From assembly GCA_030699125.1 (NCBI GenBank), contig JAUYKM010000009.1:108647-172646 (forward strand): a stretch of DNA of 64,000 nt, in the 5' to 3' direction. The stretch comes from Candidatus Daviesbacteria bacterium. Its GTDB lineage: Bacteria > Patescibacteriota > Microgenomatia > Daviesbacterales > UBA10151. The notes beneath the pieces were generated by a model, which saw only the letters and a program-made list of their open reading frames with translations, made no database searches and had not been told where the DNA came from. Below are positions 1 through 49,827 of the stretch, in pieces (the stretch's first letter is position 1; the number at the start of each line of letters is the position of its first letter). The position numbers were made by a program, and so were the translations under genes.

Positions 1-2
1 TA

Positions 3-1013
3 GGATTTGCCTCTGCTCTAGCACTTGTTTCTTCCTACTGGTTCTTATTTAGAGCCAGATCCGGAAATCTGGATGTGCCCTTAACAGCCTTTTTCCTATT
101 AACTTTGCTTCTAGCTTTGTATTCTGTTAAAAATAAGAGATTCCTTCCTCTTTTTTCCGTGAGTCTAGCTGTATTACTACTTATGAAAACATTAGTTCCT
201 TTTACCATTTTTCCGACGCTCTTTTTAATTTTTTGGAAAAGGAAAGACAAAGATTATATTAAAGCTTTAGTTTTTCCTGTATTAATTTTTATTGGCTGGT
301 TTATTTTTCAATTCACTCAAGATCCGCTTTTTCTTAATCATTATTTTTTGATTGGGCTGGCAGGAGTAAATATGCAAAGTGATTACGGGAATAATTTGAG
401 ACTGATGAAAGAATATCTTCACGCAGGAGTGGGAAAGTGGTTCTGGCCTACTACATTAGCCATTTTTATTAGCCCACTCTTAAAAGAAAAAAGATTCATT
501 ATTCTTTCTTCTTTTTTTATTATTTTTTTCCTGCCATTTATTTTTTCCCAAAAGGGCCATATCTGGCATTTGATCCCGCTTTATCCGGTAATGATTTTAT
601 CTTTTTTTGGACTCAGCTATGTATTGATGAAAAGATATATTAGAAATCAAGTAATTATTGGGATTATGATTTTAGGAATAGCTTTTTATTTTTCATTTAT
701 TCAAATAAGCAGTATCTGGTATCAATTTATTGAAATCCCCAGATATATCTCGGATGAGGAAATTTTATCTCGTGAGGCAAAAAAATATCCTTTTGATTAT
801 TATGTGGATTCGGAATCAATAGCAGCAGCTGCTTTTTATTCTGAAAAGATAGTCACCAGATTAAGGGCTAAAGATTTGATACCGTTATTTAATACCGGAA
901 AAAAATTCACTCTGTTTACTTACCAATGGAGATTAGATGGAGCAGATATTAGCAAAAGCAGCTACCAAATTATCAAAAAAGATAGGGATAAAATTTTAGT
1001 CATCAGAAGATAG
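3..1013 (+). CDS. C-terminal part of a polytopic membrane protein, probably a GT-C/GT39-like glycosyltransferase; the 5' end is truncated by the window edge.
   Basis: The frame is open from nt 3 with no stop, so the gene starts upstream of the window. It encodes multiple hydrophobic helices followed by a hydrophilic C-terminal domain. Gene 1058 follows in the same direction. Confidence 0.5.
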   Translation, partial: GFASALALVSSYWFLFRARSGNLDVPLTAFFLLTLLLALYSVKNKRFLPLFSVSLAVLLLMKTLVPFTIFPTLFLIFWKRKDKDYIKALVFPVLIFIGWFIFQFTQDPLFLNHYFLIGLAGVNMQSDYGNNLRLMKEYLHAGVGKWFWPTTLAIFISPLLKEKRFIILSSFFIIFFLPFIFSQKGHIWHLIPLYPVMILSFFGLSYVLMKRYIRNQVIIGIMILGIAFYFSFIQISSIWYQFIEIPRYISDEEILSREAKKYPFDYYVDSESIAAAAFYSEKIVTRLRAKDLIPLFNTGKKFTLFTYQWRLDGADISKSSYQIIKKDRDKILVIRR

Positions 1014-1057
1014 TTTGAGCTGGACATATGAGGCTTTAGAGCTGATATAATGATATA

Positions 1058-2590
1058 GTGAACCTTTTATTAAGATACCGAAGAGAAATTTTAATCCTCA
1101 TTGTCTTAATCGGTGCATATTTTATTTTAAGATTACCGAATTTAACTTTGCAGCCTATTTTTGCTGATGAGGCAATCTATATTAGATGGGCACAGGTGAT
1201 GAAATCCGAACCTACTTTGAGGTTCTTACCTCTGTCTGATGGTAAAACCCCCCTTTTTATGTGGTCCATGATTCCCTTTTTTAAATTCTTCGAGGATCCC
1301 TTATTTGCTGGTAGATTTTTATCAGTGTTATCCGGCTTGATAACTCTTTTAGGCGTATTTGCCTTAAGTTGGAAAGTATTTGGGAAAAGAGTGGCTCTTT
1401 GGGCCAGTTTGATCTATGTAGTCGTGCCTTACACTATTTTTTTTGACCGAATGGCTTTAGTGGATTCTCTTTTGTCTGCCTTTAGTATTTGGTCTATATT
1501 TTTTGCCATTTGGCTGGCCCAAAAAGTTAGACTAGATCTGGCCATGATTTTGGGATTTATTTTAGGTGGAGGGATTCTAACTAAAACTCCGGGAATGTTA
1601 AGCCTCTTTTTAGTCCCTCTATCTTTCTTAGCTTTCAGAAGAGTGGGGGGAGATAAATATAAATTAGTGAGGTTAGTTTTATTTTGGGGAGTGGCTATTG
1701 GGATTGCTCTTTTTATGTATAATAGTTTGAGATTAGGCCCAAATTTTCACCTATTATCTTCTAGAAATGCTGATTATGTTTTTTCTCCTTTAGAGCTTAT
1801 CGGCAGACCCTTAGATCCTTTTATTCCACACCTTAAAGATATGGCGGATTGGTTCCCTAAGTTATTAGGATGGCCGGTGATTTTGGCGGGATTTGTAGGA
1901 ATTTTTGGAGTTATTCGCGAGAGGAATAAATTAAGAATCTTAGTTTTACTTTGGGCACTCTTGCCATTGCTTATAGAAATGGCATTTTTAAGGACCTTTA
2001 CTGCCAGGTATTTATTATTTACCATCCCACCGCTTTTGGTAGTTGCAGGATACGGGGTAGAAAAAATTTCCAATTTCAATCTCTCGACTTCGCTCGGGAC
2101 AAGATTTCCAATTTCAAATATAGTAATAACATGGATTATTCTTGTAGCTTTATTATTGCCCAACCTATATTTTAATTATCTGCTTCTGACTAATCCTCAA
2201 AAAGCTCCTTTACCTAGAGAGGAGAGGATTGGTTATTTTGAGGATTGGACTGCCGGATATGGGTTTTCTGAAATTGCCCAGTTTTTGATGGAAAAGAAAA
2301 AGGAGGGTCCTGTAACAGTGGGAACAGAAGGATATTTTGGCACTTTGCCAGATGGTTTATATATTTATCTGGATAAAGCCGGAATTCAAGTGGTACCGGA
2401 TCAAGCCACAGTTTCTGCTAAACTTCTTGATGCAGCTCAAACAAACCAAACCTTTTTTGTGGCTAATAAATCTCGACTCCTGGAATATACCAAGCAGTTA
2501 AAACTTATCAAGGAATATCCAAAAGCACAAAGTCCGGACGGTAAACAAGACGCCATTCAACTATTTGAGGTTATCCCAGATGCAAATTAA
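1058..2590 (+). CDS. GT39/GT83-like (PMT_2/ArnT-like) lipid-linked sugar glycosyltransferase. It is a membrane protein of about 12 TM helices.
   Basis: It has a GTG start. The first extracytoplasmic loop carries 'FADEAIY', the D-E motif typical of ArnT/PMT-family GT-C enzymes. The protein is polytopic with a C-terminal soluble region. Confidence 0.65.
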   Translation: MNLLLRYRREILILIVLIGAYFILRLPNLTLQPIFADEAIYIRWAQVMKSEPTLRFLPLSDGKTPLFMWSMIPFFKFFEDPLFAGRFLSVLSGLITLLGVFALSWKVFGKRVALWASLIYVVVPYTIFFDRMALVDSLLSAFSIWSIFFAIWLAQKVRLDLAMILGFILGGGILTKTPGMLSLFLVPLSFLAFRRVGGDKYKLVRLVLFWGVAIGIALFMYNSLRLGPNFHLLSSRNADYVFSPLELIGRPLDPFIPHLKDMADWFPKLLGWPVILAGFVGIFGVIRERNKLRILVLLWALLPLLIEMAFLRTFTARYLLFTIPPLLVVAGYGVEKISNFNLSTSLGTRFPISNIVITWIILVALLLPNLYFNYLLLTNPQKAPLPREERIGYFEDWTAGYGFSEIAQFLMEKKKEGPVTVGTEGYFGTLPDGLYIYLDKAGIQVVPDQATVSAKLLDAAQTNQTFFVANKSRLLEYTKQLKLIKEYPKAQSPDGKQDAIQLFEVIPDAN

Positions 2591-4283
2591 AAATTTTCTA
2601 TCTAGATTCCGCTTTCTACTGCTAGCTCTAGTATTGACTATACCTTTATATTATTCGTTAATCAGGCCCGGTTTTTTTCCCATGCAGGATGATCTACAGG
2701 CTTTTAGGCTGTATGAGATGCATGAGTGTTTTAAAGATTTGCAAATTCCCTGCAGGTGGATACCGGATGCAGGGTACGGTTATGGTTATCCACTTTTTAA
2801 CTTTTACTCTCCCGGAGTTTATTACCTGGGGGAAATTTTTCATCTGATAGGATTCCAGTTTATTGATGTAGTAAAAATTTTATTTATTTTGGGATTTTTG
2901 GCGGGGACATTTAGTATGTTTTTTTTAATTAAAGAACTTTTTGGCGCCTGGGCTGGCATGGTGGGTGCTTTGCTTTTTAGCTACTCCCCTTTTAAAGCAA
3001 CAGAGGTTTATGTGAGAGGATCTTTATCGGAGTTTTGGGCCCAAGTTTTTTTCCCATTTATATTTTGGTCCTCATATAAATTAATCAAAACTTCTCAGAT
3101 AAAATATCTTATTTTACTTGCTTTGAGTTGGGGATTGTTACTGATTACCCATAATTTAATGTCATTTATTTTTGCCCCTTTATTTTTAGTCTGGGTTATT
3201 TATTGGATGTTAGCAGAGAAAAAATGGATCAGTTTACCCAAAGTAATTGGAGGGATATTATTAGGATTTGGACTAGCTTCTTTTTTTATACTGCCTTTGA
3301 TTTTTGAAAGAGGATTTGTTCATCTGGAAACTTTACTGGGAGGATATTTTGACTACCGTCAGCATTTTGTATCTTTATATCAGCTTTTTATCTCTAATCA
3401 TTTTGGCTATGGTTCTTCATTTCTAGGGCCAATTGATGATTTGTCACTTTCGGTGGGCATTGCCCACTGGATAGTGGGACTTATGGCTGTTATTTTAGCT
3501 ATTTTAAATTTTAAAAAATATCCCAAAGTAGCTGGGATCATACTGACTTTGGCAACAGTAGAAGTTATGGTGATATTCTTAATGCACCAGAGGTCATCAT
3601 TTATCTGGGAGAATTTTTCCGCCATCTGGTGGCTGCAATTTCCCTGGAGATTTTTGGCAGCAAGTTATTTTTTCCTGTCTATTTTAGGGGGAGCAGCTTT
3701 TTTCTTCCTCCAAAAGCTTTTGGATAAAAAATATGTCAGAATTTTGGCAGTTACTATGATTGCGGTTTTAATCCTATTGCATGGCTCAAATTTTCAACCG
3801 AAAGAGTGGCTGAATATTTCTGATCAGGATAAATTTTCCCAAGATTCTTGGCAGAAACAGTTGACTATCTCAATTTTTGACTATCTGCCCATTTATGCCC
3901 AGCTTCCTCCCAACCATGAAGCTCCCCCCGCTCCGGAAATTTTAGAGGGTAAGGTAAATATCTTTAGTTACGAGAAGGGTAGCAATTACCAGATAGGGGA
4001 GGTGGAGGTGTTGGAAGAAGCCACACTCAGACTGCCGCTCTTTGATTTTCCAGGAATGGAGGTCACGCTTAATGGTAAAGTGATTAATCATGTAAATGAT
4101 GACTGTAGAGGAGAGGATTATTGTTTTGGACTGATCAGCTTTACTATCCCGGAAGGACGGCATATGATAAAAGTTCAACTTAAAGATACCTCGGTCAGAA
4201 CGATAGGGAATATAATTACCTTAGTAAGTTTCTTTATAGTGGTGTTTTCTTTCGCAAAAATTAAATATGGCAAAAATATTTAA
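2565..4283 (+). CDS. Family-B polytopic membrane protein, a GT-C-like paralog 1 of 4. It may be YfhO-related or PTPS-related membrane family.
   Basis: Conserved motifs are 'FFPMQDDLQAFRLYEM', 'IPCRWIPDAGYGYGYPLFNFY', 'EVYVRGSLSEF', 'THN', 'FERGFVHLETL', 'GYGSSFLGP' and 'QFPWRFL'. A C-terminal beta-rich soluble domain contains 'FDFPGMEVTLNGK'. Confidence 0.6.
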   Translation: MRLSQMQIKNFLSRFRFLLLALVLTIPLYYSLIRPGFFPMQDDLQAFRLYEMHECFKDLQIPCRWIPDAGYGYGYPLFNFYSPGVYYLGEIFHLIGFQFIDVVKILFILGFLAGTFSMFFLIKELFGAWAGMVGALLFSYSPFKATEVYVRGSLSEFWAQVFFPFIFWSSYKLIKTSQIKYLILLALSWGLLLITHNLMSFIFAPLFLVWVIYWMLAEKKWISLPKVIGGILLGFGLASFFILPLIFERGFVHLETLLGGYFDYRQHFVSLYQLFISNHFGYGSSFLGPIDDLSLSVGIAHWIVGLMAVILAILNFKKYPKVAGIILTLATVEVMVIFLMHQRSSFIWENFSAIWWLQFPWRFLAASYFFLSILGGAAFFFLQKLLDKKYVRILAVTMIAVLILLHGSNFQPKEWLNISDQDKFSQDSWQKQLTISIFDYLPIYAQLPPNHEAPPAPEILEGKVNIFSYEKGSNYQIGEVEVLEEATLRLPLFDFPGMEVTLNGKVINHVNDDCRGEDYCFGLISFTIPEGRHMIKVQLKDTSVRTIGNIITLVSFFIVVFSFAKIKYGKNI

Positions 4284-5925
4284 AAATAATATTTATCTCA
4301 TTTTGGTAATGGTTGCTTCCCTTATGATAAGTTGGCCGCTATTTTTGCCCGGTTACTTTTCTCATCATGATGATCTGCAGGTAATGAGAATTTTTGAGAT
4401 GAGAAAATGTATTGAGGATTTACAAATCCCCTGTCGGTGGGTTCCGGATATGGGGTATGGCAACGGCTATCCCTTATTCAATTATTACAACCCACTTCCT
4501 TATTATGTGGGCGCGATATTAAGTTTTGTATTAGGTTATGTAATTTCTGCCAAGGCCTTATTTTTAATTGCCATTTTCTTGGGGGGTGTTTCTATGTTTT
4601 TTTTGGCCAAAGAAATTTTTGGCAAAGAGCCAGCAATGGTTGCGGCGATTTTATATCAGCTTGCTCCGTATAAAGCTTTGGATTTATATGTGAGGGGTGC
4701 CCTGGCTGAAAGTTTTGCTTTGGGTATTGTTCCTTTCTGTTTTTTATTTGTCATAAAACTTTTAAGGGAAGATAGAAAGGTTTATTTCTGGGGATTAAGT
4801 TTGTCTTTGGCTGCTCTACTGATAAGTCATAATATTATGACTTTGGTTTTTGTGCCGATACTTTTAATCTTTTGTATTTTTTCGATATTTTTTGAAAAAT
4901 CGAAAAATATCCGTCTATTACTTTTTAGTTTGGTAGTGGGATTGGGGTTGGCTGCCTTTTTTATTATTCCCTCATATTTTGAGAAAGATCTGGTCCAAAT
5001 TGACAACTTAACCAGACTGGACTTAGATTTTCGTGCACACTTTGCAACAGTCAATCAACTCTTTTTAGATAGAAGTTGGGGATATGGGGCCTCTTTCCCG
5101 GGGCCTAACGATACTATTTCTTTGCAGATTGGTTGGCCGCATTGGGCCATTGTGACAATCTCTTTCTTCTGGGCCATTTTTTCATTTAAAAAAGCAAACT
5201 CAAAAATGGCATTATTATTTTTTACTATCTTTGTATTAGCAATCTTTATGACACATATTAGGTCTGCCTTTGTTTGGGAGCAAATTGGCATTTTAAGATT
5301 TGCCCAATTCCCCTGGAGATTTTTATCAGCGGCCATTTTTACAGCTAGTTTATTGGGAGCATATTTAATAAGTAATATAAATAATAAATACAAAATTTAT
5401 TTAACAATTCTTATCGGTGTCATAACAATAATCTTGAACTGGAATTATTTTAAGCCTGAAATATTTTACCCAAATATTGGTGACATAGAAAAATTATCAG
5501 GCGAAGAATGGGAGACCCAACAAAAAGCTGCCATTTTGGATTACTTACCCCAAACTGGGGTTCAACCTAGAGAAGGCGCACCGGCAAATCCCCTTATAAT
5601 AAATGGACAGGCCAATATCAGTAATTTTGTGAACAGATCTAGTAGGTGGAAATTTAATGTGGATGTAGATGAAAAGTCTAGAATAGAAGCACCTGTTTTT
5701 GATTTTCCCAAATGGAGAGTTTTTGTAGATGGAAAGAAAATTGCCCATGATAATAAAAATTATTTAGGAAGAATCGCCTTCGAGTTAACTGAAGGTGAAC
5801 ATGCTGTAGAGGGAAAATTAGAAAATACTCCAATTAGGACTTTAAGTAATACCATTACCTTAATATCAATAATAGTTTTGGGACTCATTACTTTATATGG
5901 AAAGAATCGAAAATTTTTTAGATAA
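4267..5925 (+). CDS. Family-B polytopic membrane protein (GT-C-like), paralog 2 of 4.
   Basis: It carries 'FSHHDDLQVMRIFEM', 'IPCRWVPDMGYGNGYPLFNYY', 'DLYVRGALAE', 'SHN', 'WGYGASFPGP' and 'QFPWRFL'. A C-terminal domain contains 'FDFPKWRVFVDGKK'. Confidence 0.6.
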   Translation: MAKIFKNNIYLILVMVASLMISWPLFLPGYFSHHDDLQVMRIFEMRKCIEDLQIPCRWVPDMGYGNGYPLFNYYNPLPYYVGAILSFVLGYVISAKALFLIAIFLGGVSMFFLAKEIFGKEPAMVAAILYQLAPYKALDLYVRGALAESFALGIVPFCFLFVIKLLREDRKVYFWGLSLSLAALLISHNIMTLVFVPILLIFCIFSIFFEKSKNIRLLLFSLVVGLGLAAFFIIPSYFEKDLVQIDNLTRLDLDFRAHFATVNQLFLDRSWGYGASFPGPNDTISLQIGWPHWAIVTISFFWAIFSFKKANSKMALLFFTIFVLAIFMTHIRSAFVWEQIGILRFAQFPWRFLSAAIFTASLLGAYLISNINNKYKIYLTILIGVITIILNWNYFKPEIFYPNIGDIEKLSGEEWETQQKAAILDYLPQTGVQPREGAPANPLIINGQANISNFVNRSSRWKFNVDVDEKSRIEAPVFDFPKWRVFVDGKKIAHDNKNYLGRIAFELTEGEHAVEGKLENTPIRTLSNTITLISIIVLGLITLYGKNRKFFR

Positions 5926-7606: not shown

Positions 7607-7630
7607 CTAACAGTATCCGCGTATCTTTCT

Positions 7631-10830: not shown

Positions 10831-10845
10831 TCAAATTTTTTTATA

Positions 10846-17869: not shown

Positions 17870-17880
17870 AATAGGAATTA

Positions 17881-20669: not shown

Positions 20670-20670
20670 A

Positions 20671-23100: not shown

Positions 23101-23156
23101 AAAATGTACCTGTCTAGCATTTTACATCATTTGGTTTAACTGTTAAGATTTAAATT

Positions 23157-24056: not shown

Positions 24057-24059
24057 CCT

Positions 24060-28538: not shown

Positions 28539-28546
28539 TCATCATA

Positions 28547-31788: not shown

Positions 31789-31824
31789 AAATTAGCTTTT
31801 ATCTTTCCAAATTGTTAACATTAA

Positions 31825-36462: not shown

Positions 36463-36476
36463 AAAAAAGTTAAATT

Positions 36477-38295: not shown

Positions 38296-38303
38296 ATAGT
38301 TGG

Positions 38304-40699: not shown

Positions 40700-41495
40700 C
40701 CTGATTTCCATAATAGTTCCGGCTTTTAATCAGGAAAAAACCATAGTTCATGATTTAAAAAAAATACATCAAGTTCTTGAGAAACTAAGATATAGCTCTG
40801 AACTTATTTGTGTGGTTGACGGCATGTTGGATAGAACCTTTGAGAAAGCCACCAAGTTTGCCAAAGAATCCCCCCGTATTAAGGTAGTGGGATACGAGAA
40901 AAATAAGGGTAAGGGTTATGCCATACGTTATGGCATAGCGGAAAGTAAGGGGGATATTGTGGGCTTTATAGATGCGGGGATGGATTTAAATCCAAATGGA
41001 TTATCGATGCTTCTTGAGCATTTTGAATGGTACAATGCCGATATTATTGTTGGTTCTAAAAGACACCCTGTTTCTAAGGTGATTTATCCTTGGCAAAGAA
41101 GAGTCCTTTCGCTTGGCTATCAAATTTTAGTAAGATTATTGTTTGGTCTTCGGGTAAGAGACACACAGGTGGGAATGAAATTTTTTAGAAGAGGAGTATT
41201 AAAAAAAGTTTTGCCAAGATTGTTGGTAAAAGAATATGCTTTTGATGTAGAGATGTTGGCCGTTTCCAAATACTTGGGGTTTAATCGAATTTTCGAGGCA
41301 CCTGTAGATATCAAGTTGAGATTTGGGGGAGCATCTACCATTACCAGTCAAAAATTCTTAAGAACAGTCTTGGCTATGTTTTGGGATACTTTGGCAGTAT
41401 TTTATAGGTTGAAAATTCTGAGATACTATTCCGACAAAAATAAGAGAAGATGGAAATTTGACCCGGAGTTAAATTTCAGAATAAATATCGGATGA
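40671..41495 (+). CDS. GT2 polyprenyl-phosphate sugar synthase (Dpm1/GtrB-like; dolichyl or undecaprenyl-phosphate hexosyltransferase).
   Basis: It carries 'ISIIVPAFNQEKTI', 'VVDGMLDRTFEKA', 'EKNKGKGYAIRYG' and 'FIDAGMDLNP' (DXD), plus a C-terminal 'RFGGAS' region. Its 3' end overlaps the downstream GT-C-like gene by 4 nt. Confidence 0.7.
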   Translation: MIREAQKRTSLISIIVPAFNQEKTIVHDLKKIHQVLEKLRYSSELICVVDGMLDRTFEKATKFAKESPRIKVVGYEKNKGKGYAIRYGIAESKGDIVGFIDAGMDLNPNGLSMLLEHFEWYNADIIVGSKRHPVSKVIYPWQRRVLSLGYQILVRLLFGLRVRDTQVGMKFFRRGVLKKVLPRLLVKEYAFDVEMLAVSKYLGFNRIFEAPVDIKLRFGGASTITSQKFLRTVLAMFWDTLAVFYRLKILRYYSDKNKRRWKFDPELNFRINIG

Positions 41496-43387
41496 TTTTA
41501 TTTGACTACATACGTTTCCTTGTATTTTGCTTTCTGATAATTATTCCAGTGGGCGAATTAGTCTTAAGAGTAATAGGTTTTAGGGGCAAGTTTTGGGAGA
41601 CTCTTTTAATAACAACAAATATTGGTTTTATTTTTACTACTCTGGTCGTCTATATTGCGGGTTTAATAGGAATAAATAATATTCTTCCGGCATTAATCCT
41701 ATTACCCTTTTTTCACCTATTAATATTTAGATCTAATTTTTTTGTTAAATTGGTAAGTAAAAAGATAAGTTTAGACATTGTTCTTTTAATTATTATTGCT
41801 GCTGTTGTCATACTACAGGGAGCCCTTAATTTTTATTCAGGCGAAATTCTTCCAGAGGGTATTAGGCTAACAGCAGGACATGCTCATGACAGTTTATGGC
41901 ACATAAGTCTAATAAATAATCTCAAAATACAAATACCTCCGGAAAACCCAATTTATTCAGGGACTTTATTAACTAATTATCATTATTTCACTGATATTTT
42001 TATGGCTTTTGTTTCAAATTTTACGAGTATATCAACTCTTGGCATTTATTTTAAGATAATGGGACCATTTCTGCTTATACTATTTAGCGGTTCGGTTTTT
42101 CTTCTTTCTCTAAGATTGACTGCCAATAAGATTCTCTCCTACATGGCAATTCTTTTAACTGTTCTGAGCAGTAATCTATATTATTTAATAGGAATATTTT
42201 ATGAAAATGCCAAAATTACCCCTTCTGTATTTTGGGTGGATGAATTTGCTACTAGGATGACCAATTTACAGCTTTTGGCATCCTATATAGTCATACTCAC
42301 TGTTCTATACCTAATGCTTATTTTCAGAGAAAAATTTTATATGAAAATCACATTAATCTTATCAATTATCATCTCCTCCCTTTTAGGATTCAAAGCATAC
42401 GGTTTCATACTTATTATGCTATCGTTACTAATTCTTTTTATCTATAGAAGAAGCTTTAATTATTTAAAGCTTAGTTTAGCAAGTATTTTTTTCTCACTTA
42501 TTATTTATAAAAATAGTATCTCTTCAAGCAACTTCCCTTTCATTTTTATGCCCTTTTGGTTTATCAAAAATATGTTTGAGACTGGAGATCATCTAAATTA
42601 CTCAATATGGGAATTAAAAAGACAAACCTATCTTCAGGATAATAACTTTCTTCGTATAGGTACCCTTTACATTGAAGGAATTATAGTTTTTCTTTTAGGA
42701 AATTTAGGAGGAAAAATAGCGGGTTTTTTAACTATATTTCAAAAATATCAAAAAGATAAAATTGATATAATCATAATTCTGACATTGGTATCCGTTTTTG
42801 GAACTTTAATTCCCTGTATCTTTCTCCAAAAGGGAATAGTTTGGAATACCATTCAATTTTTTTATTATTCCTACCTTTCGCTTTCTCTGCTTTTCACACT
42901 TTTTATCTCAAGATTATTGTTAAGAGCAAAACTTATCACATTAATAATTCTCGCCTTTATTTGGGGAACCTTGCTTCCTGGTGTTTTCTATACTTTAGAT
43001 TTATATTCCCCAAATAAATCTTCTATCCAAAACCGCTCAGCTTTAATTGATGCATCTTTTTTTCTTAAGAATCAAGATAAAGGTAATGTTGTGGTAGACC
43101 CTTTATATTATCAGGATTCATTGATTCCGGCTTTATCAGGACAATCAGTATTTATGGCAGATTCAACCCAATTGAATCTCTTGCTTATAAATGATGATGA
43201 TCGGGATAGAGATCTAAGGAATTTTTTTGATGACAAGCTAGAAGAAAATAAATTTAATTTTCTTGAAAATAACAATATTAGATATATAATTTCCAATGAG
43301 GGCAGAATTTTTTTGGATAAAATAATGCAATTAAAAAAAGTTTATTCTAATTCAGAAATTAGTATTTACAAAAATATTTCTAAATAA
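41492..43387 (+). CDS. Family-C polytopic membrane protein (GT-C-like paralog), immediately downstream of a GtrB-like GT2.
   Basis: It carries 'TAGHAHDSLWHISLINNLKIQIPPENPIYSGTLLTNYHYFTDIF' and has multiple TM helices. Confidence 0.55.
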   Translation: MILFDYIRFLVFCFLIIIPVGELVLRVIGFRGKFWETLLITTNIGFIFTTLVVYIAGLIGINNILPALILLPFFHLLIFRSNFFVKLVSKKISLDIVLLIIIAAVVILQGALNFYSGEILPEGIRLTAGHAHDSLWHISLINNLKIQIPPENPIYSGTLLTNYHYFTDIFMAFVSNFTSISTLGIYFKIMGPFLLILFSGSVFLLSLRLTANKILSYMAILLTVLSSNLYYLIGIFYENAKITPSVFWVDEFATRMTNLQLLASYIVILTVLYLMLIFREKFYMKITLILSIIISSLLGFKAYGFILIMLSLLILFIYRRSFNYLKLSLASIFFSLIIYKNSISSSNFPFIFMPFWFIKNMFETGDHLNYSIWELKRQTYLQDNNFLRIGTLYIEGIIVFLLGNLGGKIAGFLTIFQKYQKDKIDIIIILTLVSVFGTLIPCIFLQKGIVWNTIQFFYYSYLSLSLLFTLFISRLLLRAKLITLIILAFIWGTLLPGVFYTLDLYSPNKSSIQNRSALIDASFFLKNQDKGNVVVDPLYYQDSLIPALSGQSVFMADSTQLNLLLINDDDRDRDLRNFFDDKLEENKFNFLENNNIRYIISNEGRIFLDKIMQLKKVYSNSEISIYKNISK

Positions 43388-43388
43388 T

Positions 43389-44498
43389 ATGAATATTCTA
43401 ATCTTATCTTGGAGAGGACCGGGGCATCCACATGCTGGGGGGGCGGAAATTTCAACTCATGAACACGCCAAGGGTTGGATAAAAGCTGGGCATCAGGTAA
43501 CACTCTTCACCTCCTATTATATAGGTGCGAAGAAGGAGGAGAAAGTAGATGGAATTAAAATAATTAGACAAGGTGAGCAAGTTCTAGGAGTACATCTAAG
43601 AGCAATATCCTGGTATCTTTTTGGTAATCACCCCAAATTTGATATTGTAATTGATCAGTTCCATGGGATACCTTTTTTTACACCACTTTATGTCCGAGTA
43701 AAAAAATTAGCTTTTATTCATGAGGTGGCAAAAGATGTTTGGAAAACAAATTTCAGCTTAATTCCTGCAACTTTAGGTGAAGTTTTTGAGTCCTACGTAT
43801 TTAAACTTTATAAAAATATTCCCTTTATGACGGTATCGCATTCAACAAGAGAAGATCTTATTAGTTGGGGGATTCCGGATAAAAATATCACAATCATACA
43901 TAACGGCGTTACAGTTCCTAAAACGCTTAAACCAATGGCTAAAGAAAAGAAAAAGACAATAATTTTTTTGGGGGCCATCAGTAAGGATAAAGGGATTGAG
44001 AAGGCAATTAATGTTTTTTCAATTATTAATAATAAAGAGAGAGATTGGCAATTTTGGGTAGTAGGAAAGTCAGATCAACCATATATGTTAAAGCTCAAGA
44101 GTTTATCAAGAAAATTAGGTCTTTCAAGTAAAATAAAATTTTTTGGTTTTATTTCGGAAGATAAAAAATTTGAATTTTTATCAAAGGCTCATATTTTAAT
44201 AAATCCTTCTATTAGGGAGGGATGGGGGTTGGTGGTAATTGAAGCTGCAAGAATGGGTACACCTACTGTAGCATTTAATGTTCCGGGTCTTAGGGATTCA
44301 ATTATTAATAATAAAACTGGGATTCTCTGTTCTGATAATAGTGTAGAAAATTTAGCCAAAAATATTTTTAATCTGCTGGAAAATAAGAAAGAATATGATC
44401 GGATCAGAAAAAATGCCCTTCTTTGGAGTGAAAACTTTTCTTGGGATAAAGCTGTAAAAAAAAGTTTAGAGCTGATTGAGATGATTGACAAGGGATAG
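43389..44498 (+). CDS. GT4-family (GT-B) glycosyltransferase.
   Basis: The N-terminal 'ILILSWRGPGHPHAGGAEI' and C-terminal 'REGWGLVVIEAARMGTPTVAFNVPGLRDSI' give it away. Confidence 0.75.
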   Translation: MNILILSWRGPGHPHAGGAEISTHEHAKGWIKAGHQVTLFTSYYIGAKKEEKVDGIKIIRQGEQVLGVHLRAISWYLFGNHPKFDIVIDQFHGIPFFTPLYVRVKKLAFIHEVAKDVWKTNFSLIPATLGEVFESYVFKLYKNIPFMTVSHSTREDLISWGIPDKNITIIHNGVTVPKTLKPMAKEKKKTIIFLGAISKDKGIEKAINVFSIINNKERDWQFWVVGKSDQPYMLKLKSLSRKLGLSSKIKFFGFISEDKKFEFLSKAHILINPSIREGWGLVVIEAARMGTPTVAFNVPGLRDSIINNKTGILCSDNSVENLAKNIFNLLENKKEYDRIRKNALLWSENFSWDKAVKKSLELIEMIDKG

Positions 44499-44528
44499 AG
44501 TTTATTTAATAATGGAGGGGCAAAAAAG

Positions 44529-45584
44529 GTGATGAAAAATAAGATACTCGTAACAGGAGCAGGTGGATTTATTGGTCACCATATGGTCAAATTCCTCAAA
44601 GAAAAAGGGTTTTGGGTGAGAGGAGTGGATATTAAGGAGCCGGAATTTGAATCTACTGTCGCTGATGAATTTTTACTTTTGGATTTAAGAGACAAAGAAA
44701 ATACTCTAAAGGTAACAAGAGGTATCGATCATGTATATAATTTTGCTGCCAATATGGGCGGAATTGGCTTTATTGAGACTGTTCATGCTGAAGTAATGAG
44801 GGATAATGTTTTAATTAATACGCATCTTTTAGAAGCATCCCTTATGAATGGAGTAAAGAAATTCTTCTTTGCTTCATCTGCCTGTATTTATCCAAAATAC
44901 CTTCAAGAGGGAGAAGAAAATACTGGTTTAAGAGAATTTAATGCTTACCCTGCTGATCCAGATAATGAATACGGTTGGGAAAAATTATTTACTGAACGCC
45001 TCTGCTATAACTATTGGACAGACTTTGGTTTGGAAACTAGAGTTGCCAGATTTCATAATGTTTATGGACCATTAGGTACTTGGCAAGGTGGTAGGGAGAA
45101 ATCTCCAGCAGCCCTTTGTAGAAAAATTGCAGAGGCAGAAAACAATGGGGAAATTGAGGTTTGGGGAGATGGTAACCAGACAAGATCATATTGTTTTGTA
45201 TCAGATTGTGTAGAAGGGGTATATAGATTGATGAATTCCGATGTAAGAAAACCTATTAATGTCGGATCTGATAGACTGATTTCCATTAATGAAATGATTG
45301 AAATTATTTCACAGATCGCTGGGAAAAATATCAGAAAAAGATATGATTTAACCAAACCTCAAGGAGTACGCGGTAGGAATTCCAACAATGATCTTATTCG
45401 TTATCTATTTGATTGGGAACCTAAGATTCCTTTGGAAGCAGGATTAAAACAGACTTATTTTTGGATTAAATCGCAAATCGATAAAGGAAAATTAATAAAA
45501 AAAAGTAAGGCAAATGGTGAAGATATCCCTAAAAAGAAAGAAAATGCAAGAAAAATTAGGAACAGAAAAGTAATAGTTATATAA
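44529..45584 (+). CDS. GDP-mannose 3,5-epimerase homolog (GME family, NAD-dependent SDR).
   Basis: It carries 'ILVTGAGGFIGHH'. A long near-collinear match to plant and bacterial GME is visible from memory: 'DHVYNFAANMGGIGFI', 'FFFASSACIYP', 'RFHNVYGPLGTWQGGREKSPAALCRK', 'VWGDGNQTRSYCFVSDCVEG', 'PINVGSDRLISINEM', 'QGVRGRNSNNDL' and 'YFWIKSQI'. There is an AGGTG Shine-Dalgarno sequence 4 nt upstream. Confidence 0.8.
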   Translation: MMKNKILVTGAGGFIGHHMVKFLKEKGFWVRGVDIKEPEFESTVADEFLLLDLRDKENTLKVTRGIDHVYNFAANMGGIGFIETVHAEVMRDNVLINTHLLEASLMNGVKKFFFASSACIYPKYLQEGEENTGLREFNAYPADPDNEYGWEKLFTERLCYNYWTDFGLETRVARFHNVYGPLGTWQGGREKSPAALCRKIAEAENNGEIEVWGDGNQTRSYCFVSDCVEGVYRLMNSDVRKPINVGSDRLISINEMIEIISQIAGKNIRKRYDLTKPQGVRGRNSNNDLIRYLFDWEPKIPLEAGLKQTYFWIKSQIDKGKLIKKSKANGEDIPKKKENARKIRNRKVIVI

Positions 45585-45617
45585 TTACCTCTAGAAAAAA
45601 GTTATTTTCCTAAAAAA

Positions 45618-47990
45618 ATGTTGGATTATTCAACAATCGCTTGGATTAAAATTATAGTTTTTTTGATTCCCATTTGGTTTACAGGAATAATAGTGGTTCG
45701 ATCTATCGTTAAGAGACAGAGAGTCGAGCTGGTCCTTCCTGTAGGCTTAATAGTGGGGCTTTCCCTATATGTTTTTTTCTTAAACAGTTTGTCATATATT
45801 TTAACTCCTCCTTGGAGCATCTTAATCTCTTACATAATTTTTCCCATGATAGGATTTATCTTTTGGAGAGTTTGTAAATTTGATAAGTGGGATTTGCTCA
45901 ATGGTAAGATATTATTCGTCTACCTTTTATCACTTTTATTGTGGACAAGCTTATTCATTTGGAAAGGTAATTTTGCTTTAATTGGAAGCGATACAAATCT
46001 TTATTATTCTGTTGCGCATACATTCTTAAATGGTAATTTCCCTCCCAAAACGCCATGGCAGCCGGATCTATCATTAGTTTATCATCTTGGAACCTTTGAA
46101 CTATTAGGTGCTTTTTATTATTTTACAAATCTCCCGTTTCAATTTCTACATATTTTCTTTTCTGCTATTATGATTCTTGCATGTTCGCAGATTATTATTT
46201 GGCTTTGGAAAAGACATGAGTCCTTCATTTCAGTAACTATAATAAATTTAGCAGTTGCTGTAATTTTTATCAGTTTTGGTTTCTTTAAAATAGTGATTCC
46301 CGTCTTTCCTTTAAAATTTCCAAATATACCCTCGATTCATGAGTTTTTTTTATATATCAGAAACCTGCCTACTGTTAATCAGTCAATTGAAGTATATGGA
46401 GCCGCGATTAATTTGGATGGTCTAATTTATTTCATTTTTCATATTTTTGGAATTTCCATATTTATAGCCCTTTTAGCTTTAGTAGTTAATCTCAAAAAGG
46501 AAACCATATATTTGGGATTTACAGTTTTCCTAATTTGTTTGGCTTCCTTAGCTATTATAAATGAATCATTATTTATTGGAGCCTCCTCGTTAATAGTAAT
46601 AAGTTTAATTTATTTGCTTAAGGAGAAAGTTCTTTTAAAAAAGATTAAATTTGTTTCAGTATCTATCCTGATCTTTGGGGTTATTGTTTTGTTTCAAGGG
46701 GGGGTAATAACGAATATTTTGGTAAAAAATGATGCAATTGAATCATCAATAATTTTTTTTCCAAAGAAAGGCCAAATTGAGGGAGATATAGACGCTTATC
46801 ATCTTCATCAACAAATATCAAAAGCATTAGAAGGAAGAAAAAATTGGTATCCTTTCACTTGGATTCATGTGGGAGTTGATTTGTTAATTCTATTTATAAC
46901 TTTATCCATTACTTTCATAAAATATACATCAAATCAGAGGCTGATAATTTTCGCATTATTTCTTGGCGGAGCCCTTTCTTTAATTGCCTATAATAATATA
47001 GTGCCAAAGCTCTTGGCGGCAAATGGTAACAGATTTTTAGGATTTGCATTTATATTTTTTTCATTAGCATTGCTTTACTCCCTTTCTAACTGGATAGGCA
47101 ATTTTCTGAAAGGAAAATCACCCCTTAACTATTTATTAATAATTATTGTGGTGAGTTGGATTTTCTTACCAACGGTTTTGCCGCCATTGACACTTCTTTC
47201 CAAAACTAGATTTGGAGAAAACAAGCTAATTCCCAACGAGTCAATAAGCAGTCCTGGGATTCTGTGGTTGAGAAATAATGCAAATTTTTCCAACAGAGTA
47301 ATGGTCTTAGATAAAAATGCACCTCATCCCAGTGGTCAGGCGCGTGCTTTAGTTGAAGCAGGAATTTTTGCACCGGTTTTTACTGGTAACTTTAGAGCTT
47401 ATACTATTGAAGCCTCTCCGGAATATATTGATACAGCATATTCATTAAGCCCATTAGCTTTGCAAAAATTACAAATCTCTCTACTGCTAATCGATGCAGA
47501 TTTTTACCAGATGTTGCACCAAAAAAGAAAGATTCAATTAGATGATGATAAATACTTCGAAAAAGTTTTTGACAATTCCAATATGCAAAATAATTGGGAA
47601 AAAATTTATAAGATAAAAAAGGAATACTTAAAAAATGGAGAAGAATTAAGCGGTACCCTGGAAGAATTATCGGAAAAATTACTAAAAAGGGAAAAAATTT
47701 ATATAGACAATGAGGAAAATTTTAAGTATGATTTTTTAAGAAGACCAATCATATTTATGTTAAGAAATAAGGATTTATACTTTAATCCTCAGTCAGGTGT
47801 ATATTTAAATGTTGAGGCAAAAATTAATCAAAGGACCCCCGAAGAAGATATTAAATATGATTTTTTAATTTTGGGAAATAAAACTGACTCACATGAGGTT
47901 TGTGATTGCAGTGCAGAATTGATATGGAGGGGATTAAATGGTCAGGTTTATTTATGGAGGTCGGAGTATTTTGGCAAAGTGGAAAAATAA
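45618..47990 (+). CDS. Large polytopic membrane protein (790 aa) with a C-terminal soluble domain of about 280 aa; family unknown.
   Basis: It has at least 14 predicted TM helices over about 500 aa, then a hydrophilic C-terminus. Its 3' end overlaps the convergent GT2 gene by 43 nt. Confidence 0.45.
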   Translation: MLDYSTIAWIKIIVFLIPIWFTGIIVVRSIVKRQRVELVLPVGLIVGLSLYVFFLNSLSYILTPPWSILISYIIFPMIGFIFWRVCKFDKWDLLNGKILFVYLLSLLLWTSLFIWKGNFALIGSDTNLYYSVAHTFLNGNFPPKTPWQPDLSLVYHLGTFELLGAFYYFTNLPFQFLHIFFSAIMILACSQIIIWLWKRHESFISVTIINLAVAVIFISFGFFKIVIPVFPLKFPNIPSIHEFFLYIRNLPTVNQSIEVYGAAINLDGLIYFIFHIFGISIFIALLALVVNLKKETIYLGFTVFLICLASLAIINESLFIGASSLIVISLIYLLKEKVLLKKIKFVSVSILIFGVIVLFQGGVITNILVKNDAIESSIIFFPKKGQIEGDIDAYHLHQQISKALEGRKNWYPFTWIHVGVDLLILFITLSITFIKYTSNQRLIIFALFLGGALSLIAYNNIVPKLLAANGNRFLGFAFIFFSLALLYSLSNWIGNFLKGKSPLNYLLIIIVVSWIFLPTVLPPLTLLSKTRFGENKLIPNESISSPGILWLRNNANFSNRVMVLDKNAPHPSGQARALVEAGIFAPVFTGNFRAYTIEASPEYIDTAYSLSPLALQKLQISLLLIDADFYQMLHQKRKIQLDDDKYFEKVFDNSNMQNNWEKIYKIKKEYLKNGEELSGTLEELSEKLLKREKIYIDNEENFKYDFLRRPIIFMLRNKDLYFNPQSGVYLNVEAKINQRTPEEDIKYDFLILGNKTDSHEVCDCSAELIWRGLNGQVYLWRSEYFGKVEK

Positions 47991-49775: not shown

Positions 49776-49827
49776 AACTTTTCTTCTTGATTTTTGAAGT
49801 TTAATTTAGTAGGATCCTTTTATCTTC

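Follow-up and report, generated by a model that had tools for sequence, protein, structure and literature searches.

The 64-kb stretch of DNA analysed here (the window) comes from a metagenome-assembled genome (MAG) of Candidatus Daviesbacteria (CPR, Microgenomates) and covers the greater part of a gene cluster that spans 64 kb or more, is almost gap-free and is largely co-directional. Twenty-four polytopic GT-C-type proteins occupy 41 kb of the window. On balance, we lean toward the view that the cluster specifies an assembly line, dependent on a lipid carrier, that builds a single complex glycan on the outside of the membrane. In this CPR bacterium, whose genome is tiny, approximately 64 kb is given over to this single packed glycosyltransferase cluster. 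A literature search found no published account of it, and the conserved surface glycan that it would make, if the proposal is true, would be an undescribed one.

Forty-nine ORFs were called across the window (Table 1). Intergenic gaps were at most 85 bp everywhere, so that missed genes have no space, and start/stop codon overlaps of 4 bp were frequent between neighbouring genes. Within positions 1-47990, 31 of the 32 genes lay on the plus strand, the sole exception being g13. The initial annotation, which had correctly suspected a CPR organism, confined the island to these positions. However, g42, g48 and three of the four soluble DPM1-like GT2s are found beyond 47990; hence the island takes up the entire window, and it also extends past the left edge. 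The other genes encode two MOP/Wzx flippases, four soluble DPM1/GtrB/ArnC-like GT2s, further GT2 and GT4 enzymes and sugar-nucleotide enzymes, and their interleaving with the GT-C genes, as annotated, was borne out by Pfam, NCBIfam and PDB sequence matches. An artefactual origin of the island, by chimeric joining of several genomes, can practically be dismissed: GC content was even across the window (0.29-0.37), a 12.6 kb overlap with an independent Logan assembly contained no mismatch, the cluster genes bear consecutive locus tags on a 360-kb NCBI contig, and the gene order recurred in 15 related loci, mostly MAG contigs from several projects.

Table 1. Features of the window.
Gene	Feature	Position	Strand	Remarks
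g01	PMT_2-family GT-C	1-1013	+	5' end cut by window start; 449 aa full length
g02	PMT_2-family GT-C	1058-2590	+	PF13231 51.5 bits, PF02366 30.8 bits
g03-g06	Four tandem PF10131 (PTPS_related) GT-C paralogs	2565-9364	+	g03 2565-4283; g04 4267-5925; g05 5897-7606; g06 7631-9364
g07	MOP/Wzx-type flippase	9361-10830	+	PF13440 179.9 bits
g08	Signal peptide, ~480-aa extracytoplasmic domain and OST-like GT-C domain	10846-14265	+	
g09	GT-C without Pfam model	14262-16262	+	Structurally nearest oligosaccharyltransferases STT3/AglB/PglB
g10	PMT_2-family GT-C	16259-17869	+	PF13231 53.6 bits; GDEL motif
g11	PMT_2-like membrane protein, 390 aa	17881-19053	+	Variable insert
g12	PMT_2-family GT-C	19050-20669	+	Variable insert; PF13231 38.5 bits, PF02366 35.1 bits
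g13	YfhO-family GT-C	20671-23100	-	Variable insert; PF09586 84.7 bits
g14-g16	Soluble cytoplasmic GT2 (g14, g15) and GT4 (g16)	23157-25940	+	PF00535 76, 67 bits; PF00534 85 bits
g17	PIG-M/GT87-like GT-C (weak assignment)	25937-27061	+	8 predicted TM segments
g18-g23	Six tandem PMT_2-family GT-C paralogs	27024-36462	+	PF13231 26.7-51.8 bits; g18 27024-28538; g19 28547-30172; g20 30157-31788; g21 31825-33483; g22 33480-34877; g23 34792-36462
g24, g25	Cytoplasmic GT2 (g24) and GT4 (g25)	36477-38295	+	PF00535 85.9 bits; PF00534 87.9 bits
g26	PIG-V-like (Mannosyl_trans2) GT-C	38304-39449	+	PF04188 41.3 bits
g27	Second MOP/Wzx-type flippase	39437-40699	+	PF13440 73.2 bits, PF01943 66.1 bits
g28	Soluble DPM1/GtrB-like GT2, candidate polyprenyl-phosphate sugar synthase	40671-41495	+	
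g29	Third OST-like GT-C family member, accessory	41492-43387	+	
g30, g31	GT4 (g30); SDR sugar epimerase/dehydratase/reductase (g31)	43389-45584	+	PF00534 136 bits; PF01370 166 bits
g32	GT-C, second family without Pfam model	45618-47990	+	GT-C by predicted structure
g33	AglJ/dolichyl-phosphate-hexose-transferase-like GT2, candidate donor synthase	47948-48673	-	PF00535 87 bits
g34-g36	Soluble protein (g34); NDP-sugar dehydrogenase (g35); SDR epimerase/decarboxylase-like (g36)	48744-52109	+	
g37, g38	PgfS/PpgS-like GT2, candidate donor synthase (g37); SAM methyltransferase (g38)	52090-53669	-	
g39-g41	DUF5667 (g39); paralogous membrane-anchored proteins (g40, g41)	53605-55294	+ (g39), - (g40, g41)	PF18915 37 bits
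g42, g43	Probable GT-C, rare family (g42); ArnC-like GT2, candidate donor synthase (g43)	55260-57757	-	
g44-g47	Gfo/Idh/MocA (g44); ATP-grasp (g45); SDR (g46); HAD (g47)	57754-61466	- (g44), + (g45-g47)	Sugar-modification cassette
g48	Probable GT-C, rare Daviesbacteria family	61435-63384	+	12 predicted TM segments
g49	NDP-sugar dehydrogenase	63386-64000	-	N-terminal part apparently beyond window end

Nine proteins (g02, g10, g12 and g18-g23) scored above the gathering cutoff of PMT_2 (PF13231, 26.1 bits). The window fragment of g01 has six predicted transmembrane (TM) segments; because the full-length protein, found on an identical Logan contig (L017, 769-2118), also carries PF13231, together with an FDEA motif after TM1, the PMT_2 proteins number ten, as initially annotated for the GT39/PMT_2-like group. 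PMT (PF02366) was also matched by six of the ten. In all ten PMT_2 proteins the loop after TM1 bears a DE motif (ADEA in g02, IDEV in g12) or, in g19, the variant EE; the other five of the six tandem paralogs have DE. In keeping this motif the ten proteins resemble bacterial GT39 Pmt and ArnT-type GT83 enzymes. Unlike actinobacterial Pmt, which is single-copy, they are ten anciently diverged paralogs, with identities of 23-35% among g18-g23, and none of the ten has MIR domains. Lipid A, the acceptor of ArnT, would not be expected in a CPR bacterium whose envelope is of the Gram-positive type.

The tandem proteins g03-g06, initially described as a four-member 'HHDD..PCRWxPD' family, are clear paralogs with mutual identities of 28-39%. 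The PF10131 gathering score was exceeded by g04 (50.8 bits) and g06 (43.1 bits); g03 matched weakly and g05 did not match PF10131. Their conserved motifs are DD after TM1 (in all four), QIPxRWxPD and QFPWRFL, and hhalign related them to YfhO at 92-94% and to PMT_2 at 76-78%. The single YfhO-like and PIG-V-like proteins were likewise recovered as g13, whose C-terminus showed a weak PgfM2 match, and g26, which has an FDGEHY motif. As for g17, which carries a YHPD motif after TM1, PIG-M (PF05007) exceeded its cutoff (25.9 versus 23.4 bits), whereas GT87 (PF09594), the family originally proposed, fell below (21.9 versus 25 bits); its assignment is weak for this reason.

Three GT-C families are without a Pfam or NCBIfam model. 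The first, originally recognized by an 'HDxxWHI..NYHYF' signature, comprises g08, g09 and g29, none of which had a Pfam, NCBIfam or PDB sequence match. g08 is 32% identical to g09 over 670 aa; g29 is 27% identical to both, aligns with g09 at 100% in hhalign and shares the HAHDSLWH and NYHYFTD motifs. The second is the g32 family of 94 proteins, almost all from Daviesbacteria. The predicted model of g09 has a GT-C fold, and the g09 and g32 models matched GT-C enzymes only, including AftA, AftB, AftD, Emb and PimE, with transporters at Foldseek probabilities of at most 0.1; ALG12, ALG9, ALG3, ALG6 and STT3 were also among the structural matches of the modelled proteins. First-loop acidic residues were invariant in the g09 and g32 families. 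Such retention of loop-1 acidic motifs would fit catalytic competence of the PMT_2, PF10131, g09 and g32 families. The third family contains g42 (11 predicted TM segments; no Pfam or NCBIfam family match) and g48, for which 13 homologs were found; the two aligned at 95% in hhalign. A profile of g48, its homologs and g42 aligned with that of the PMT_2 paralogs (probability 86.6%, E 4.5e-6). Furthermore, g11, which had no Pfam or NCBIfam match, aligned with the g21 family at 87% in hhalign; it is short, and in the alignment lacks the N-terminal segment bearing the DE motif. Among the proteins first left without a family, g32 is thus a GT-C by structure, whereas g11 and g42/g48 are weakly tied to GT-C, through profile-profile links to PMT_2 at approximately 87%.

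These assignments bear on the possibility that most of the membrane proteins are transporters or other non-glycosyltransferases, which we judge very improbable. About seven polytopic proteins (g05, g08, g09, g11, g29, g32, g42 and g48) do lack a Pfam or NCBIfam match of their own. However, apart from the two flippases, the Pfam matches of the polytopic proteins were all to GT-C families, the two modelled families without a Pfam model resembled GT-C enzymes as described above, and the g48/g42 profile aligned with the PMT_2 core. The transporter reading is contradicted for 21 of the 24 proteins, the remaining three being g11, g42 and g48. Where the initial annotation counted about 25 GT-C-like membrane proteins, Pfam, predicted structures and profile comparison gave 24.

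The structural neighbours of g09 raise another possibility, namely ALG/OST-style protein glycosylation, in which synthesis of a lipid-linked oligosaccharide would begin in the cytoplasm, the MOP flippases would turn it over, GT-Cs would lengthen it outside with polyprenyl-phosphate sugars, and a divergent STT3/AglB/PglB-like g09, with g08 and g29, would transfer it en bloc to surface proteins. GT4/GT2 enzymes, MOP flippases, DPM1-like synthases and PIG-V/PIG-M/ALG-like GT-Cs are all present in the locus, and a W[FY]D[TS]xY motif conserved in g09 orthologs resembles WWDYG. However, this motif is degenerate and is not present in g08 or g29; a sequence link to STT3/AglB/PglB was found neither with Pfam STT3 nor against PDB, even using a 38-sequence profile; and no initiating enzyme was found in the locus. 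Moreover, the C-terminal domain match is not diagnostic of an OST, because the non-OST-like g32 gave the same match. We consider this pathway quite unlikely. The N-terminal domain of g08 had no Pfam or PDB match, apart from a weak precomputed DUF3863 match, and the g08-type long form (~1000-1160 aa) recurs among the family representatives.

Pfam placed g07 and g27 in the Polysacc_synt_3/MOP family; the NCBIfam matches of g07 to MOP flippase, TuaB and O-glycosylation Wzx were all below cutoff. The top PDB sequence matches of g28, which has no predicted TM segment, were Pyrococcus DPMS 5mlz (1.7e-15), GtrB sll0501 and ArnC. Both g28 and g37 matched PgfS, the best NCBIfam match of g43 was ArnC, and g33 matched AglJ (116 bits) and DPhHxTase (67 bits), in each case under the cutoff. 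None of the donor-synthase and sugar-nucleotide assignments reached an NCBIfam equivalog cutoff: the best match of g31, GDP-fucose synthase, was below its cutoff. g35 exceeded the cutoff of TIGR03026 (298 bits), g36 matched PF01370 (198 bits), g34 had no significant match in Pfam or NCBIfam, and g14-g16 have no predicted TM segments.

The relatedness of the paralogs was compared with that of their counterparts in the related loci. For most paralogs whose region lies within the fetched loci, syntenic reciprocal-best 1:1 orthologs were found at 39-78% identity in Daviesbacteria, Woesebacteria, 'Microgenomatus' and other Patescibacteria MAGs. Identity to orthologs in other Daviesbacteria, and for many also in Woesebacteria or other Microgenomates, was well above that between paralogs of a family in the window, which was 23-39% rather than the 35-50% first estimated. 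The core paralogs kept in this manner are g03-g05, g09, g10, g17, g18 and g20-g25. Orthologs of g03-g06 were 47-63% identical, those of g10 59-66% in Daviesbacteria and 39-47% in other Microgenomates, and those of g18 and g20-g23 37-61% in Woesebacteria and other Microgenomates; g17-related copies showed 26-67% identity. The g14-g16 trio recurred in six Daviesbacteria loci (50-71%), g24/g25 were syntenic in L009, L011 and L013-L016, and g26 and the g35-g36 pair were kept in L015 and L016. No DNA repeat in the window exceeded 86% identity over 30-137 nt, which argues against recent amplification. These sequence comparisons support the old diversification initially proposed.

Because syntenic ortholog identity exceeds paralog identity, the data favour an ancient, fixed multi-step assembly line of non-redundant steps over the combinatorial or diversifying system, as that had been worded. 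Since the cluster recurs in distantly related Microgenomates, one elaborate conserved surface glycan is its most likely product. Variation in gene content is confined to a few places, namely the g10-g14 interval, the surroundings of g19/g20 and of g29, and the part beyond g36 on the right; accordingly, with g11-g13, g19/g20, g29 and everything right of g36 differing among genomes, the product is not strictly invariant. Among the loci compared, orthologs of g11, g12 (78% identical) and g13 were found in L002 only, and g29 is absent from L015 and L016.

This variation would suit a toolbox of independent decorating systems, the view of the initial annotation, in which each GT-C with a polyprenyl-phosphate sugar synthase serves a different acceptor or sugar, as in Gtr, YfhO/CsbB and PMT/TMTC/TMEM260; the cell surface would then be variable, which could help in evading phages or attaching to hosts. 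Such a toolbox has a small but appreciable chance of being the correct explanation. Four candidate donor synthases with many GT-Cs follow a 'three-component' logic, the g32 and g48 families are rare and lineage-restricted, and eukaryotic PMT_2-like paralogs divide protein acceptors among themselves. However, the core paralogs have kept syntenic 1:1 orthologs from one candidate phylum to another, in contrast to loci for serotype conversion or phase variation, and neither DNA repeats, mobile-element genes nor composition shifts were found inside the window. The three-component concept of extracytoplasmic glycosylation is the subject of a review (PMC11127046). Like GtrA/GtrB/GtrX, CsbB/GtcA/YfhO, PgfS/PgfM1/PgfM2 and ArnC/ArnE-F/ArnT, the cluster pairs GT2 polyprenyl-phosphate glycosyltransferases with GT-C transferases, with g13 in the YfhO family and the PgfS and ArnC matches noted above. 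Unlike those systems, it has two MOP flippases, with no GtrA-type flippase detected in the window by Pfam, and approximately six GT-Cs per donor synthase instead of a 1:1 ratio; the locus is conserved and syntenic, not a mobile or serotype-converting module.

In the preferred assembly line, the sugar-nucleotide enzymes g31, g35, g36, g44-g47 and g49 would supply activated sugars, and the soluble GT2/GT4 enzymes (g14-g16, g24-g25 and g30) would make a polyprenyl-linked primer on the cytoplasmic side. The DPM1/GtrB/ArnC-like GT2s g28, g33, g37 and g43 would charge polyprenyl phosphate with single sugars, and g07 and g27 would move the lipid-linked intermediates across the membrane. Outside the cell, the approximately 24 GT-Cs, of at least seven sequence families, would each add a particular sugar or linkage from polyprenyl-phosphate sugars. 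For the last step, attachment of the glycan to its acceptor, the OST-like g08, g09 and g29 are the strongest candidates. We infer this step order, the donor chemistry and a single conserved envelope glycoconjugate as the product; the data are equally compatible with a wall polysaccharide, a lipoglycan or a glycan carried by an abundant surface protein. Counting against the assembly line, Pfam detected no WecA/WbaP-type initiating phosphoglycosyltransferase, Wzy polymerase, chain-length regulator, LCP ligase or GtrA-type flippase in the window. The below-cutoff donor-synthase and sugar-nucleotide assignments, the weak ties of g11, g42 and g48 to GT-C and the modules that vary between genomes count against it too.

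To our knowledge, many non-redundant GT-Cs acting in sequence are known only from eukaryotic ALG/GPI assembly and mycobacterial AG/LM/LAM synthesis, and the structural matches include members of both pathways. Arabinogalactan and LM/LAM assembly in mycobacteria and corynebacteria employs PimE, MptA-C, EmbA-C and AftA-D with Ppm1 and DPA synthesis. Similarly, many non-redundant GT-Cs are proposed here to act outside the membrane in sequence, with polyprenyl-phosphate sugars from DPM1-like GT2s, once GT4/GT2 enzymes have primed the glycan in the cytoplasm. In contrast, mycobacteria have these genes dispersed or in small groups, whereas about 24 GT-Cs form one operon-like block here; PMT_2, PF10131, YfhO and three families without a model take the place of Emb/Aft/Mpt; and the cluster sits in a very small CPR genome. 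With the ALG and archaeal lipid-linked oligosaccharide pathways (ALG3/9/12/6/8/10, DPM1/ALG5, RFT1, STT3/AglB), the cluster would share cytoplasmic GT4/GT2 steps, a flippase, DPM1-like donor synthases, serial outer-face GT-C steps and a predicted OST-fold enzyme; unlike in those pathways, the canonical WWDYG motif is not present, and a sequence-level relationship to STT3 or ALG families was not found. We know of no GT-C extension steps outside the cell in Campylobacter Pgl, the known bacterial N-glycosylation system.

At the right end of the window, the 187-aa ORF of g49 contains the PF00984 central domain at residues 87-182, and the usual N-terminal NAD-binding domain was not detected by Pfam. 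The membrane-anchored proteins g40 and g41 are 30% identical to each other, and L015 and L016 likewise have a DUF5667 gene beside their dehydrogenase-epimerase pair.

The 49 ORFs (g01-g49) of the 64-kb window were tightly packed. The largest intergenic gap over the whole window was 85 bp, 4-bp overlaps between neighbours were common, and 31 of the 32 genes of the GT-C island as first delimited were on the + strand. GC content was uniformly low (0.29-0.37), and no Rfam families were found in the window. A simple hydropathy scan of the ORFs gave 26 proteins with 5-14 TM segments, and the 24 candidates for GT-C enzymes, i.e. polytopic membrane glycosyltransferases, together spanned 41.3 kb. The first gene, g01, is truncated by the window start; its full-length product, encoded on a Logan contig that matched the window over 12.6 kb with 0 mismatches, was a PMT_2 protein of 449 aa with an FDEA motif. 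Entries 100% identical to the window proteins were found in NCBI on a 360-kb contig (locus tags Q8P92_01850 to Q8P92_01930). NCBI places Candidatus Daviesbacteria in the Microgenomates group of Patescibacteria, in agreement with the CPR origin proposed in the initial annotation. A chimeric assembly, which that annotation had named as a possible source of the locus, was excluded by the uniform GC content, the identical independent Logan contig, and the related loci described below.

The membrane proteins were assigned to families using Pfam. The ten PMT_2-like proteins listed initially were confirmed: nine exceeded the PMT_2 (PF13231; CAZy GT39-GT83-like) gathering cutoff of 26.1 bits (g02, 51.5; g10, 53.6; g12, 38.5; g18, 29.3; g19, 43.0; g20, 26.7; g21, 34.7; g22, 40.6; g23, 51.8), and full-length g01 had a precomputed PMT_2 match. 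Six of them also matched PMT (PF02366), g02, g12, and g21-g23 over the cutoff and g01 weakly. Protein O-mannosyltransferases (GT39; eukaryotic PMT and actinobacterial Pmt) transfer mannose from polyprenyl-P-Man to protein Ser/Thr, and the eukaryotic members possess a luminal MIR domain. Since the MIR domain was absent from every PMT_2 paralog in the Pfam search, we filed these proteins under PMT_2-type GT-C enzymes and did not call them PMTs. PF10131 (PTPS_related membrane domain; cutoff 26.4 bits) was matched by g04 (50.8 bits) and g06 (43.1 bits). The match of g03 was weak (18 bits; its PMT_2 score of 22.1 bits was also under the cutoff) and g05 had none; these two proteins were tied to the PF10131 family through 28-39% paralogy and hhalign (100%). 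Furthermore, g13 was identified as YfhO (PF09586; 84.7 bits, cutoff 28.5) and g26 as PIG-V-like, and g17 showed a weak PIG-M/GT87 match. The other genes encode Wzx-type flippases of the Polysacc_synt_3/MOP type (g07 and g27), GT2 (g14, g15, g24, g28, g33, g37, and g43) and GT4 (g16, g25, and g30) proteins, and sugar-nucleotide and sugar-modifying enzymes (g31, g35, g36, g44-g47, and g49).

Identities between paralogs, determined by all-against-all BLASTP, were 28-39% for g03-g06, 27-32% for g08/g09/g29, 23-35% for the PMT_2 set, and 23-31% for g42/g48; this overall range of 23-39% is lower than the 35-50% estimated at first. The initial statement that DNA-level repeats are absent held, as a repeat search of the window returned only 60-86% matches of 30-137 nt at conserved paralog motifs, and recent amplification was rejected. 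Acidic residues just after TM1, a GT-C hallmark of the first extracytoplasmic loop, were retained. Among the PMT_2 proteins, TM1 was followed by DE in nine (g01, g02, g10, g12, g18, and g20-g23) and by EE in the tenth, g19, and DD followed TM1 in g03-g06; in the first external loop, D136 was invariant in the g09 family and D125 and D150 in the g32 family. The N-terminal DE segment was missing from g11. As judged from the sequences, these patterns argue for active enzymes, not decayed copies.

The membrane proteins g08, g09, and g29 had no Pfam (E <= 0.01), NCBIfam, or PDB sequence match. Neither phmmer nor a 38-sequence profile found an oligosaccharyltransferase (OST) among all PDB sequences, and shallow local hhalign linked neither g09 nor the model-less protein g32 to another family (g09 versus g10, 0.7% probability). 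It was structure prediction alone that resolved the folds of g09 and g32. The AlphaFold model of g09, built from an alignment of its homologs, had a pLDDT of 89.5 and a pTM of 0.91. In Foldseek, 19 OST or DPY19 chains came first (E 2e-9 to 4e-7), followed by ArnT (7.5e-5), AftA, and Pmt4 (3.5e-2). The nearest structural neighbours of the predicted model were OSTs, including the C-terminal alpha/beta domain. About 2000 clusters at 50% identity, among 1.84 billion representatives, belong to the g09 family, with length forms of ~560, ~650, and ~1000-1160 aa; the names of clusters holding distant relatives were uninformative. Its invariant first-loop motifs are HxHDGxWH and NYH[FY]FxD, and further motifs are GES.FW..Q, FK.Y, PWW[FY]I, and DR. 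The long g08-like form was frequent among family members (one reached 1639 aa); the N-terminal domain of g08 gave nothing in Pfam or PDB searches and one weak precomputed DUF3863 match.

The OST-like fold predicted for g08/g09/g29 raises the possibility of en-bloc glycan transfer to protein. At its fullest, this would make the cluster an ancient, bacteria-specific Microgenomates counterpart of the ALG/OST pathway, in which at least a dozen GT-C enzymes extend a lipid-linked oligosaccharide outside the cell and g08/g09/g29, as a highly divergent OST family not recognised before, transfer it to surface proteins. If so, en-bloc protein glycosylation would have a third bacterial route, and the OST-fold enzymes would include a lineage invisible to sequence searches. 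We consider this unlikely, however, despite the predicted fold. None of the three proteins belongs by sequence to STT3/AglB/PglB (Pfam STT3 PF02516, CAZy GT66), and the WWDYG-like motif is degenerate, being W[FY]D[TS]xYV at C-terminal residues 573-580 in the g09 orthologs and IYDSTAY in g08, with no equivalent in g29. OSTs are also marked by DxD and TIXE-SVSE catalytic motifs; the conserved D136, E248, D374/R375, and E382/R385 of g09 (sequence positions) are only putative counterparts of the PglB residues.

The predicted structure of g32 (pLDDT 89.3) matched ALG12 (15.9), Pmt2 (15.2), AftA, Pmt4, AftB, GPI-MT-I, and ArnT, and on this model g32 is also a GT-C fold. Its C-terminal domain matched the same AglB domain as that of g09; therefore, the AglB-like domain is not OST-specific, and we rejected it as an OST marker. 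The g32 family consists of 94 proteins, nearly all from Daviesbacteria. Sequence searches with g32 and with two profiles (A1 and A4) gave nothing meaningful against all PDB sequences, and NCBIfam returned no match for any model-less membrane protein. Only 13 proteins were found in the g48 family; its profile, including g42, aligned to the PMT_2 paralog profile with 86.6% probability, and g11 aligned to the PMT_2 paralogs at 87% (hhalign). A polytopic domain of about 8-13 TM helices is typical of GT-C enzymes, and the models of g09 and g32 agree in structure with known members. Taken together, Pfam and structure bear out the initial view of these proteins as glycosyltransferases: HMM matches, clear paralogy, or structure place 21 of the 24 candidates among the GT-C proteins, and the other three are probable members. 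A transporter identity was considered and rejected.

To compare the cluster among genomes, we fetched 13 loci around g09 relatives (species-representative genomes) and two around g32 relatives, from Daviesbacteria, Woesebacteria, 'Microgenomatus', and unclassified Patescibacteria MAGs. Gene order and content were common to all fetched loci apart from a few variable places. Reciprocal-best orthologs were 45-83% identical among Daviesbacteria-like genomes, and those of g03, g04, g05, g09, g10, g18, and g20-g25 were 35-61% identical in Woesebacteria and other Microgenomates, ranges that we regard as well above the 23-39% between paralogs. The duplications are thus older than the divergence of these candidate phyla, and each copy was kept. 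Orthology was less clear for g17, which has two related copies (26-42% identical) in the Woesebacteria and other Microgenomates loci. As for the variable places, g11-g13 were found in only one other locus, g19/g20 and g29 were not universal, and the region to the right of g36 differed between genomes. Overall, we regard the cluster as a GT-C operon of unusual size and great age, syntenic between genomes, that includes three GT-C families without models.

Positions of the features in the window and in related loci
Feature	Sequence	Positions	Description
GT-C island	window	1-47990 (as first delimited)	32 genes
g08 N-terminal region	window	10846-12285	~480 aa; signal peptide and large extracytoplasmic domain before the predicted OST-like GT-C domain
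Slot g10-g14	window	17881-23100	variable hotspot in Daviesbacteria
g22/g23 overlap	window	34792-34877	86 bp
g34	window	48744-49775	acidic, soluble, 343 aa; between donor-synthase-like GT2 and sugar dehydrogenase
g39	window	within 53605-55294	DUF5667 protein; N-terminal signal or anchor
g44-g47 cassette	window	57754-61466	Gfo/Idh/MocA (best match UDP-GlcNAc 3-dehydrogenase), ATP-grasp (PylC-like N domain), SDR epimerase, HAD phosphatase
Flanking genes	L009 (related locus)	632-2723	short-chain dehydrogenase, PNPOx-like flavoprotein, aldo-keto reductase, in Woesebacteria and Microgenomatus loci
Flanking genes	L014 (related locus)	623-1351	as for L009
ORF of ~190-200 aa	L009-L014 (related loci)	about 11700-12440	directly downstream of the g09 ortholog

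GT-C enzymes use polyprenyl-(pyro)phosphate-linked sugar donors at the outer membrane face. In the window, four DPM1/GtrB/ArnC-like GT2 proteins and two MOP flippases form a context in which such donors may be supplied. The best PDB sequence matches of g28 were the Pyrococcus Dol-P-Man synthase, GtrB (sll0501), and ArnC, and g33, g37, and g43 matched AglJ, a Dol-P-hexose transferase, PgfS, PpgS, and ArnC. Every match of these four proteins was under the NCBIfam equivalog cutoff, as was the case for the sugar-nucleotide enzymes, none of which NCBIfam named over such cutoffs, and, unlike GtrB and ArnC, the four had no TM helices. On sequence grounds, these four are the best candidates for polyprenyl-phosphate sugar synthases. 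A three-component Gtr-type system, an established form of GT-C glycosylation (PMC11127046), combines a GtrB-like GT2 with a small GtrA-family flippase. The four proteins are candidates for the GtrB-like part; Pfam found no GtrA-family flippase among the 49 ORFs, and the gaps of 85 bp or less leave no room for an unlisted gene such as GtrA. The locus shares Wzx-type g07 and g27 with the Wzx/Wzy-dependent pathway but differs in having no polymerase, initiating phosphoglycosyltransferase, or chain-length regulator: Wzy, O-antigen ligase, Bac_transf, MraY/WecA, WbaP, and Wzz had no match within the window and could lie elsewhere in the genome.

The operon-like packing, the non-redundant conserved paralogs, and the combination of cytoplasmic GT2/GT4 enzymes, flippases, DPM1-like synthases, and many GT-C enzymes point to a lipid-carrier-dependent assembly line for one complex, conserved extracytoplasmic glycan, whose sugars, acceptor, and order of steps are inferred rather than demonstrated. 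This assembly line finds its closest working parallels in the AG/LM/LAM synthesis of mycobacteria and in the ALG/OST pathway; by sequence, the cluster is a member of neither. Conservation across candidate phyla suggests that the product is a complex envelope glycoconjugate that is probably essential. The initial annotation, sound in its observations apart from small corrections, had read the island as a combinatorial glycosylation system; the accessory modules agree with that reading, whereas the syntenic core kept as 1:1 orthologs does not.

CPR/Patescibacteria account for a large share of bacterial diversity, and to our knowledge their cell-surface chemistry and its interface with hosts and phages are essentially unknown. 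The cluster is also the densest in GT-C genes that we know of; M. tuberculosis has roughly 15 GT-C genes dispersed over 4.4 Mb. The GT-C genes alone occupy 41 kb of the window, and the only long contigs seen for this lineage measure 360-770 kb, so that the window probably represents several percent of the genome. A full-text literature search turned up neither this cluster nor any account of GT-C expansions or OST-like proteins in CPR. One genome paper remarked in passing, without analysis, that a Microgenomates genome has '29 genes of glycosyl transferases' (PMC7143001), and a recent review of Patescibacteria made no mention of glycosylation (PMC11665869). The cluster is not categorically new biochemistry, but that a minimal genome has one so large and so conserved is surprising. 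It makes CPR envelope chemistry directly testable, as an ordered gene set for glycomics, cryo-ET, and heterologous reconstitution. It also adds three GT-C families beyond Pfam and NCBIfam, and the one with an OST-like predicted structure could serve glyco-engineering.

Several further features were observed around the cluster. The g44-g47 cassette, which is absent from loci L015 and L016, hints at a sugar with an unusual modification, perhaps amination or amidation. In the window and in L015 and L016, g39 adjoins an NDP-sugar dehydrogenase-epimerase pair; the neighbouring g40 and g41, membrane-anchored paralogs (30% identical) without a family match, could be substrates or have an accessory role. 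For g34, Pfam and NCBIfam gave no significant match, and the fetched loci contained no ortholog. The slot g10-g14 is empty in L003-L005 and carries g11-g13 in L002; in L006 and L007 it holds other genes instead, one for a g17-like protein, one for a protein of ~220 aa, and, on the opposite strand, one for a further g09-like paralog, with a PMT in L007 as well. In the L009-L014 genomes, g09 runs opposite to the other genes of the cluster. Its ~190-200-aa neighbour, conserved in all non-Daviesbacteria loci, had no Pfam match and no homolog in the window. An AbiEii toxin gene adjoins the cluster in L014. That the genes flanking the Woesebacteria and Microgenomatus loci recall DprE1/DprE2-type polyprenyl-phosphate sugar epimerisation is pure speculation by analogy. 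Six TPA MAG contigs (L004-L008 and L010) titled 'uncultured Gammaproteobacteria bacterium' hold the cluster in the same order, with proteins 63-65% (L004-L007) or about 41% (L008 and L010) identical to g09; the titles appear to be placeholders or misassignments of Microgenomates genomes. Finally, the g22/g23 overlap arises because g23 was started at its first TTG. Alignment of the paralogs suggests an internal Met (MKNNLI...) ~25 codons downstream as the true start, and similar start-codon issues may affect g18 (TTG, 38-bp overlap) and g03.
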